Below, one piece after another: positions 21,001 to 24,000 of a stretch of DNA of 64,000 nucleotides. Made by a program: the position numbers. How positions within the stretch are numbered: position 1 is the stretch's first letter; every line of letters begins with the position of its first letter. The DNA is taken from assembly GCA_963820825.1 (NCBI GenBank), contig CAWGBN010000006.1, positions 640,001-704,000 on the forward strand. Direction: 5' to 3'. This DNA comes from Vulcanimicrobiota bacterium (GTDB taxonomy: Bacteria > Vulcanimicrobiota > Vulcanimicrobiia > Vulcanimicrobiales > Vulcanimicrobiaceae).

Positions 21001-24000
21001 CGCGCGCAGCAACGCGCCTGCCGCATGTGGAGCGTCGAGGCGGTGCCGGCGAGCTTCAACGAACCGGTGCGCAGCGATGCGCCGATCCTGATGATCTCCG
21101 GCAGCGACGACCCGACGAGTCCGCCGCAATACGCGCAGCGGGCGCTTCCCTATCTTCCAAATGCTCGAATCTTGTTGATGAAGAACGCCGGGCATGCGAC
21201 GGAGACGACCTGTTCCGACGCGCTGATCGTCGCATTCGTCCACGCCCAAAGCGCGCAGGGGCTCGACCTCAGCCGCTGCGGCGGCGCGTATCGCCGGCCT
21301 GCGTTCGCGACCTCGATGGCCGGCTTCGGGGATTAGGATCGAAGGACCAACGGAGACGCCGATAAAATGGAGACGGGCATGTCGAACATTGCGTGGGAGT
21401 CCGATTACCAGGGCGCGCTCGAACGCGCGCGTGCCGAGCGAAAGTTCGTCTTTCTGGACGTCTTCAACCCTGGTTGAGGGGGATGCCAAGCGCTGGATAC
21501 CGTGACGTATCCGCAGACCGAGGTCGCCGAAGCGATTCTCGCCCATAGCATTCCCGTTCAATTCGACAACTCAAAGAAAGAGAACAACGTTTTCCTGCAC
21601 GGCATCCACCACATCTGGACGCCGGACGTTCGCATTCTCTACCACGACGGGTTCGAGCTCTACCGCTGGGATGGTTTCCTGCCGCCTGCGGAGTTCGCGG
21701 CGCGAACGCTCTGCGGGTTCGGTCTTGCCTATCTTCGACTGAAGCGCTTCGAGCAGGCCGAGGAAGTCTACGTCGACGTCCTCAAGCGCTTCTCGACGAC
21801 CTACGCGGCGCCCGAGGCGCAGTATTATCTCGGCGTCACGCGTTACCGGCGAGATCCGGACAGCGACGAGCTATTGACCCAGTGGGCAAATCTCCGCTCG
21901 CGCTATCCCGAGAGCGAGTATCGCGTCAAGCAGTCGTTCAAAGATTTTCCGTAGGCCTGCGAAGCGACGACTCGATCGACGCGCGCAGCTCGGACGACGG
22001 GGCGTTCCAAAGATCGGTAAACGACTTGAGGATGCGGGCCGTCAGTCCCCAGATATGGTGCCCGCCGTAATCGAAGGCATAAAGCGTTCGTCCGAGCGTC
22101 TTGCTTCGCGTGGTATCCTCGCGCACGGCACCCGGTTCGACGATCGCTGCCAGCGGAACGGTAAAGACGCCAACGGTCTCGGTGTGATCGATCGTCAACG
22201 GCGCGCCGGGATCGAGAATGCCGACCATCGGGGTAACGAGAAAGCGGTTGGCGACCTGCCGTACGCCGGGGAGTTGCCCGACGATGCGAACCCGATCCGA
22301 AGCAACTCCGACCTCCTCGTGCAGCTCGCGCAGCGCCGTGACCGCCGGATTGCCGCCGTCGCCCGGATCGGCGATCCCGCCGGGAAGCGCGACCTGGTTT
22401 GCATGGCGGCGAAGATGCCCGGCGCGCTCGATAAAGACGACGCCGTGCGGAGCGTCGGCGAAGACCGCAAAGATAACCGCCGCGTCTCTCCACTCCATCG
22501 TGTGCCTTTGCGGCGGATTGCCGGCCCTTAGGGAGTGGCGGTCGAGGTGCTTGCGCGGATTCGCGCGACCTGAGCCGGGCTTACCGTAGAAGCTTGATTG
22601 CCCCACGCGGTGCGAATGTAGGTGACGACGGCGGCGACGTCGGCGTCCGAAAGCCAATTTCTCCAGCCGGGCATCCCGCCGGTGTAGCGATGACCTCGTA
22701 CCGTGATGTCAACGAGCATCCCGTTGAGGGTCGCAGCGATTGCGGCGCTCGGATCTTTCGCCGTGACGTGCGGATTCTTGGCCAGTGGAGGAAACGTTCC
22801 GATAACGCCTTCGCCCGTTGCCTCGTGGCAGATGGCGCAACGGTCTTGGTAGATTGCGGCACCGTTCGGTGCGGCATCGGCCGGTCCGTCGCGGAGCAAT
22901 GCGAACGCGCATGCGACAGCGATGGAAACGGCGGCGAGCATGCTCTTCGTACTCATCATGAGCGACTCTCTACGCCGCTAGAGAGCGACGGTCATGCCGC
23001 GTTCGGCCGCGCTCGCCGCGACGCCGCGCTCTTTGAGAAGGGCGGCGAGCGCCGCAGCGCTCCCCGGCTCGGCGTGGACGAGATAGACGTTCACGTTGGT
23101 CGAGCCGATGGTTCCGAGCCAGCGCAGCAGTTCGGATTGGTCTGCGTGAGCGCTGAAGCCCGCGAGATGAACGATCGTTGCCCGAACGATCAAGCGGTCT
23201 CCGAAGATGCGAACCGGGCTCGTTCCGTCGATGATGAGACGCCCCAGCGTTCCGTGGACTTGGTAACCGGGAAAGACGATCGTCGCGCGCGGGTTGCAGA
23301 GATGGCGATGCAGATGGTGCAGGATGCGCCCGCCCGTGGCCATGCCGCTCGAGGCGAGAACGATGACCGGACCGCTGACCGCGTCGATCGCCTTCGACTG
23401 CTCGGCGGTGACGTCGAGCGTAACGTTTCGGCAGCCGAACGGCGCGCCGTCGCGATGTGGTAACGGCTTACACGCCTGGGGGTAACGCGCAAAGACCGCA
23501 TCGACTTCGATCGCCATCGGGCTGTCGAGGTGAACCGGAATCTTCGCAAGCGCCAGCTCGGTCTCTTGAAGCCGGCCGATTGCGACGAGCAAGTCTTGTG
23601 CCCGCTCGACTGCGAACGTCGGTATCACGATCGGGCCCCCGCGCTCGATTCCATCGAGCAAGGTCGCGCGCAGTATCTCGAGCGAGTCGGACGGGTGAAT
23701 GCGGTTGCCGTAGGTCGCCTCGCAGACCACCGTATCGGCCGCTTCGAGCGGCGTCGGATCGTCGAGCAGCGCCGAATCGTAGCGTCCGACGTCGCCGGAG
23801 AAGATCGTTCGTCTTCCTGCGCATTGCATCGACACGTAGGCAGCGCCGATGATGTGTCCGACGCCGTGATACCTCAAGCGCGCGCCGCAGACGTCGAAAT
23901 CCGTCTCCAATGGAACGGCCTCGAGCTGTCGAAGCGCCGTCCGCACGTCGGCATCGGTGAAGAACGGCGACAAGCCGTGCGAGCGCTCGTGAGAGAATCC

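Follow-up and report, generated by a model that had tools for sequence, protein, structure and literature searches.

The window analysed here, a stretch of 64,000 nucleotides from a Vulcanimicrobiota bacterium, holds a reading frame that is interrupted at its 33rd codon by a TGA, which raises the question of whether this triplet ends a gene or is read through as selenocysteine (Sec). The earlier note on this DNA had joined two gene calls, g01559 and g01560, into one 191-residue protein read through UGA. This was borne out: translation of 21379-21954 on the forward strand meets one in-frame TGA only, at codon 33 within N-P-G-U-G-G-C, and the thioredoxin domain spans it. The following features define the locus.

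21369-21372, forward strand: GGAG, judged from its sequence a likely ribosome-binding site, 6 nt before the ATG.
21379-21954, forward strand: the predicted full selenoprotein gene, 191 amino acids through one UGA, from translation, the DNA of relatives and published family entries.
21475-21477, forward strand: TGA, putative Sec and first position of UxxC, from its conservation and from Cys in 50 of 65 distant full-length homologues.
21484-21486, forward strand: Cys36, conserved and, by thioredoxin chemistry, the putative resolving Cys of UxxC.
21502-21954, forward strand: the truncated 150-aa ORF reported by gene callers, whose GTG start lies inside a hairpin loop, from a standard-code ORF search.

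Under the standard code the locus yields only this last ORF, from GTG 21502. The in-frame ATG at 21367 might serve as start instead; relatives begin at the position corresponding to 21379. No sigma-70-like promoter was found in 21100-22200, and the locus had no RNA holder listed. By Pfam, the neighbours in the window are an alpha/beta hydrolase and a Nudix gene. The Nudix gene (21938-22657, reverse strand) extends over the final 17 bases of the selenoprotein gene from the opposite strand, a pairing that recurs in only 5 of 30 close loci. Elsewhere in the window, 29137-31073 holds ORFs which, going by their motifs, we take to resemble an ArsR regulator, a glyoxalase-type protein, an aquaporin and an arsenate reductase.

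Of 354 close database proteins, the top 120 were all 142-160 amino acids long and covered at most 79% of the query, and 57 of the best 150 representatives begin to match at query residues 35-44, which agrees in kind with a previous count of 61 entries cut to about 150 residues just after the site. In NCBI records, Ca. Brocadia genes appear as two products, one of 33 aa named 'thioredoxin family protein' (WP_230402456.1) and one of 150 aa named 'tetratricopeptide repeat protein'. Short database entries alone were rejected as proof of a UGA: 90% clusters with full-length Cys members also hold members of 148-150 amino acids.

A true stop, which we hold to be extremely improbable, would leave either a pseudogene or two products, a peptide of 32 aa and, after it, an independent TPR protein of 150 aa. 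It can draw on the split annotation in the databases and on one relative, L055 (G071:C2:300800-302400), in which the TGA at codon 33 is followed by a frameshift near codon 70 that reflects either decay or an assembly error. Codon 33 across the relatives speaks against it. Of the 301 phylum genomes, 81 show a strong match across residue 33 by a count of the rows listed (G233, one of the 81, and five others of the 301 carry an 'unpublished' flag), with an internal TGA listed in all 81; at the 50 of these loci whose DNA was fetched, the TGA was at codon 33 every time, and second internal stops in six fetched loci proved to be the genes' own terminal stops. Searching with a Geobacter-like relative gave 31 named loci, and the 26 that cover the site all have TGA (one duplicates L042; the remaining five match the helical tail only). 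These 26 come from Ca. Brocadia, Ca. Jettenia, deltaproteobacteria, Acidobacteriota, Binatia and Ignavibacteria. A Cys-form query brought up 80 metagenome loci, of which 61 carry TGA, 19 a Cys codon and none TAA or TAG, so that in all three sets the only stop seen at this position was TGA. The conservation of the in-frame TGA reported before (66 of 70 loci and 12 genomes) thus agrees in kind with our repeat, and so does the proportion of distant full-length homologues with Cys at the Sec column, formerly 48 of 59 and now 50 of the 65 homologues of 165-225 amino acids among the best 150 representatives, with CxxC in 49 of the 65. Cys36 is kept in 47/47 loci of the window's clade and in 57/65 distant homologues. 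Furthermore, a true stop would, according to the structural model, cut one thioredoxin domain at its active site; both sides of the codon score as coding, with the locus ranking 2 of 13,691 TGA sites scored; and the hairpin described below is lost where the codon is Cys.

A second alternative, in which Trp or Cys is inserted at the UGA owing to an altered code or leaky suppression, appears next to impossible to us. It finds some footing in database entries that show W at this place, which most likely stem from gene callers using a table with TGA as Trp. Against it, the sole TCA-anticodon tRNA is called as tRNA-Sec, ordinary genes of this genome terminate at TGA, which also serves several relatives as terminal stop, and the homologues have Cys, not Trp, in those 50 of 65 cases.

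Downstream of the UGA we found a structure of the kind that Sec insertion would call for.

21492-21514, forward strand: SECIS-type hairpin with a 6-bp stem (21495-21500/21507-21512) and a 6-nt loop (21501-21506), from folding, covariation and a Cys-gene control.

The loop has G at its second position and lies 23 nt after the UGA, the spacer from UGA to stem is 17 nt, two extra pairs lie below a bulged U, and the hairpin folds at -9.5 kcal/mol. With 6-8 bp, a 6-nt loop with G second, the 23-nt distance and this energy, it fits the bSECIS model as outlined in PMC13188914. Taken alone the hairpin is weak evidence, because 1,720 of the 16,251 TGA triplets examined across the genome are followed by one with at least six pairs, the 46-nt region is no more stable than shuffled sequences (z -0.45) and an alternative pairing competes; it counts only through conservation, and there the comparative evidence is strong. 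All six pairs are kept in 69 of 74 TGA loci, three of them showing changes in both strands of the stem, and 74/74 have the loop G, a comparison that leaves out L055 and the duplicate L056. Synonymous sites are all but fixed in codons 34-45: in 30 loci the share of the top codon is 0.97 for these 12 codons versus 0.70 for 109 other conserved codons, which bears out the previous description of a hairpin 17 nt after the UGA with conserved synonymous sites. The best control is the contrast between TGA genes and Cys genes: among the metagenome loci, whose peptide motif is much alike, the stem is whole in 56 of 61 TGA genes versus 1 of 19 Cys genes, or, counted as distinct 18-mers since kin are not independent, in 9 of 11 versus 1 of 16. 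The one Cys-codon gene (among L093-L172) that keeps a perfect hairpin is as expected after a recent change from Sec to Cys, and five Acidobacteriota-type TGA loci (L077-L081), with only two to four of the six pairs retained, may have a SECIS of another shape.

The machinery for Sec insertion is encoded in the genome. In a profile search selA, selB and selD scored over their cut-offs, and the tRNA search placed tRNA-Sec at C6:467130 as the only anticodon-TCA tRNA, confirming that all four are present, as the earlier note had it. Because the UGA is conserved, the hairpin tracks with it (56/61 versus 1/19) and the Sec machinery is at hand, recoding of codon 33 as Sec would, on sequence grounds, be virtually certain. 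Within the genus, selA was found in 59 of 61 genomes, including 15/15 carriers of the gene examined in both searches, versus 23 of 59 genomes examined for the gene itself; it is therefore an accessory selenoprotein. As a separate observation, the main thioredoxin gene of the genome ends 17 nt before the selA match on the same strand (C6:419548-421166, outside the window).

The gene had also been put forward as the second selenoprotein of the genome besides formate dehydrogenase. A formate dehydrogenase-like gene with TGA at C6:350419, in R-T-U-H, indeed has a hairpin of its own. A scan for further selenoproteins by hairpin only was useless, returning the 1,720 candidates; when coding potential was added, the present gene ranked 2 and the formate dehydrogenase-like gene 13 among the 13,691 TGA sites scored, and these two were the only ones among the top 19 with a six-pair hairpin. 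No third convincing selenoprotein emerged from the coding-potential scan, SelD has Cys and not Sec, and the genome's 6 thioredoxin and 10 AhpC-TSA matches are all free of internal stops. The scan is consistent with the claim, and the gene is likely the second selenoprotein, short of proof, given a heuristic scan and a genome of 85% completeness.

Is the family new? It had been described as an overlooked selenoprotein family, with the caveat that earlier lists might include some of its members. Selenoprotein, UxxC motif and lack of an NCBIfam model all stood; 'overlooked' did not, and the caveat came true. Zhang et al. 2006 (PMC1794560) report three members, from G. metallireducens, G. uraniireducens and S. 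aciditrophicus, and Additional data file 4 of that paper prints sequences of about 190 residues, that from G. metallireducens having U as its residue 33, under the label 'Thiol:disulfide interchange protein'. In the supplement of the deep-Sep paper (PMC12013277) that G. metallireducens sequence is WP_011366075.1, assigned to pfam13098, and a table of a 2026 review (PMC13188914) carries the same accession and credits Kryukov & Gladyshev 2004. The family has thus been known since 2004-2006. Supplement file 1 of PMC12013277 also contains a second, much longer protein under the same family name, with a leader-like N-terminus and many helical repeats; the name therefore covers more than one architecture.

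We consider it highly probable that the window gene is a selenoprotein of this catalogued family, with WP_011366075.1 of Geobacter metallireducens as type sequence; family membership as such we would assign with very high confidence from the sequences compared. The type sequence was compared by eye as printed text, and stored relatives stood in for it in computed alignments and in the tree; a cluster look-up starting from 10 proteins did not lead to WP_011366075.1. An ungapped comparison by eye finds 21 identities with the G. metallireducens entry in the first 49 residues; by BLAST, 63 of 181 residues (35%) are identical to a stored Geobacteraceae protein at E 2e-37. Read together, the visual comparison and the stand-in BLAST show collinear homology over the whole of about 190 residues, the C-terminal helical half included. 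All three Geobacter-type proteins tested find the window gene as their best match in the genome (E 2e-29 to 4e-26). Near-identical database proteins carry the names Ca. Eremiobacteraeota, Cybelea and Baltobacteraceae.

These data also bear on whether the clade of this phylum is a separate, new family that gained Sec independently and only resembles the Geobacter family, which we regard as very improbable. Identity to the Geobacter-type proteins of about 35% would allow it, as would the absence of an NCBIfam model for any member tested and the topology of a quick tree built from 89 hand-picked rows (32 Sec and 57 Cys). That tree mixes Sec and Cys forms, with nine changes, at least five of them forced on well-supported branches, and places the window's clade (16 rows, support 98) as sister to a Cys protein and not to the Geobacter-type clade. 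The two clades are nevertheless alike in length, domain layout, Sec column, and the hairpin and its distance, the window gene is the best match in its genome for Geobacter-type queries, and an independent gain would still amount to a Cys-to-Sec swap within a catalogued family. Membership in the catalogued family is thus the reading that we retain. We found no open-licence papers on this phylum or on anammox bacteria together with selenocysteine, and no relevant paper on a bacterial thioredoxin-like selenoprotein with tetratricopeptide repeats. What appears new here is how widely the family is distributed among hosts, its TPR-like half, the lack of an HMM and the hairpin contrast between Sec and Cys genes.

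That no NCBIfam model covers the family, as the earlier note had stated, was supported by our search: the best scores of the window protein were 16-25 bits versus cut-offs of 81-805, and all four proteins submitted, the window protein and three relatives, stayed far below the cut-offs. The predicted architecture, a thioredoxin fold with UxxC followed by TPR-like helices, was upheld by Pfam, a structural model and a fold search, and comprises the following parts.

21385-21684, forward strand: thioredoxin-fold domain, about residues 3-102, DsbD-gamma/DsbH-like, from Pfam, profile, model and fold search.
21616-21624, forward strand: Trp-Thr-Pro82, by secondary structure in the model the putative cis-proline position.
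21685-21903, forward strand: four helices (103-120, 124-137, 144-158, 164-175), about two TPR-like hairpins, YbgF/CpoB/BamD-like, from model and profile.

In Pfam, Thioredoxin_7 (PF13899) is over its cut-off at residues 5-71, Thioredoxin_2 (PF13098), which most Geobacter-type relatives carry, reaches 25.6 bits versus a cut-off of 27 (E 1.6e-5), and the TPR matches at residues 106-179 are all below their cut-offs. An AlphaFold2 model built from 66 sequences has a pLDDT of 96.5; in it, strand 23-29 leads to U33 at the beginning of helix 34-43, the near-invariant W-T-P82 is followed by strand 83-87, and the four helices come after, from residue 103 onward. The nearest folds are DsbD-gamma, DsbH and related thioredoxins, among them 1vrs_D (Z 15.8, rmsd 1.9, 109 residues aligned), and with the family profile the tail matches YbgF (E 4e-12) and CpoB (E 5e-10), and BamD as well. 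No solved structure covering both halves was found in the profile and fold searches.

From this fold, disulfide oxidoreductase activity appears probable, and the protein is likely a cytoplasmic disulfide reductase. SelB would bind the hairpin and insert Sec33; the protein, in whose translation no hydrophobic leader is visible, would stay in the cytoplasm; Sec33 would attack a substrate disulfide and Cys36 resolve the mixed selenenylsulfide, as thioredoxin chemistry suggests; the thioredoxin system would re-reduce the protein, and the TPR-like helices would probably hold a protein partner or substrate. Thioredoxin reductase and thioredoxin are both found in the genome. The most likely role would be that of an accessory protein-disulfide reductase or isomerase under oxidative or electrophile stress, the stress part being tentative, somewhat short of an even chance. 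In 56 clustered loci of relatives, with 80 of 125 candidate neighbours from 31 loci scanned, redox- or stress-related neighbours include YceI (9 loci), glutaredoxin together with a ferredoxin-thioredoxin reductase subunit (5), pirin (4) and single cases of DJ-1/PfpI, Mn-catalase and FMN reductase. These counts are without a background control, the recurring groups are kin, many neighbours are unrelated to redox or stress, and neighbourhoods are not conserved across the family.

Another reading of the same architecture is that of a selenium-containing chaperedoxin which, like CnoX/YbbN (for the function of CnoX see PMC8129009), would hold unfolded proteins on its TPR-like helices, shield client cysteines through a mixed bond with Sec33 and then hand the client over to GroEL or DnaK. 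We judge this unlikely. The domain order, thioredoxin then TPR, is the same, Foldseek lists the YbbN structures 3qdn and 3qou (E 2e-5 and 3e-5), and the CnoX-type TPR_20 domain (PF14561) has no match in the 85% complete genome, the window gene included, with matches in 3 of 14 control genomes. On the other hand, TM-scores to YbbN are 0.37-0.39 with an rmsd of 12-16, the protein has 191 residues versus 282-285 and only about two helical hairpins, its thioredoxin domain is closer to DsbD-gamma and DsbH, the gene occurs in only 23 of the 59 genomes of the genus examined for it, and no conserved chaperone neighbour was seen in the relatives' loci scanned. A broader proposal, in which the family would be a small CnoX analogue with a Sec-thioredoxin and TPR-like substrate-binding helices, one of the more widespread hidden bacterial selenoproteins, found in this largely uncultured phylum as well as in anammox Brocadiaceae and Acidobacteriota, with Sec and Cys exchanged repeatedly and the hairpin decaying in the process, is distinctly speculative and in our view improbable.

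The finding fixes an annotation gap and does not add a new kind of protein: a family lacking an NCBIfam model stands split in public records. Selenoproteome counts shift for both this phylum and anammox bacteria now that the family is seen to range more widely, and SECIS decay can be followed in a clean natural test by setting Sec genes beside their Cys counterparts.

Compared with known systems, the window protein shares with the 'Thiol:disulfide interchange protein' family a length of about 190 amino acids, U33 in D-x-F-N-P-G-U-x-G-C and, in the same order, the motifs x-Y-P, W-T-P, G-F-x-P-P, P-E-A-x-Y and Y-P-x-S. It differs in having U33-G-G-C36 where the G. metallireducens entry has U33-I-G-C36 and in belonging to a different phylum, whereas the 2006 list holds three anaerobic deltaproteobacteria; its TPR-like half is not named in the catalogue table rows consulted for the family. 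The NCBIfam families Trx_VPGUxxT (NF041382/3) and TsoB (NF045694) are likewise thioredoxin-like selenoprotein domains and give weak local matches, but NF041382, NF041383 and NF045694 score only 20-52 bits with the window protein and its three relatives versus cut-offs of 275-805 and have other motifs and lengths. CnoX/YbbN (3qou, 3qdn) also places an N-terminal thioredoxin fold before TPR helices; it has about 285 amino acids and a TPR_20-type C-terminal domain, whereas the window protein is shorter, has fewer repeats and overlays poorly over the whole chain. The closest folds and profiles for residues 1-120 are those of DsbD gamma, DsbH and Thioredoxin_7/Thioredoxin_2 proteins (PDB 1vrs, 2fwe, 2ju5, 2kuc, 2lst). 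The DsbD gamma/DsbH group carries CxxC without a TPR tail, and DsbD gamma is part of a membrane electron carrier, whereas the window protein combines UxxC with a TPR-like tail and has no visible leader or membrane segment.
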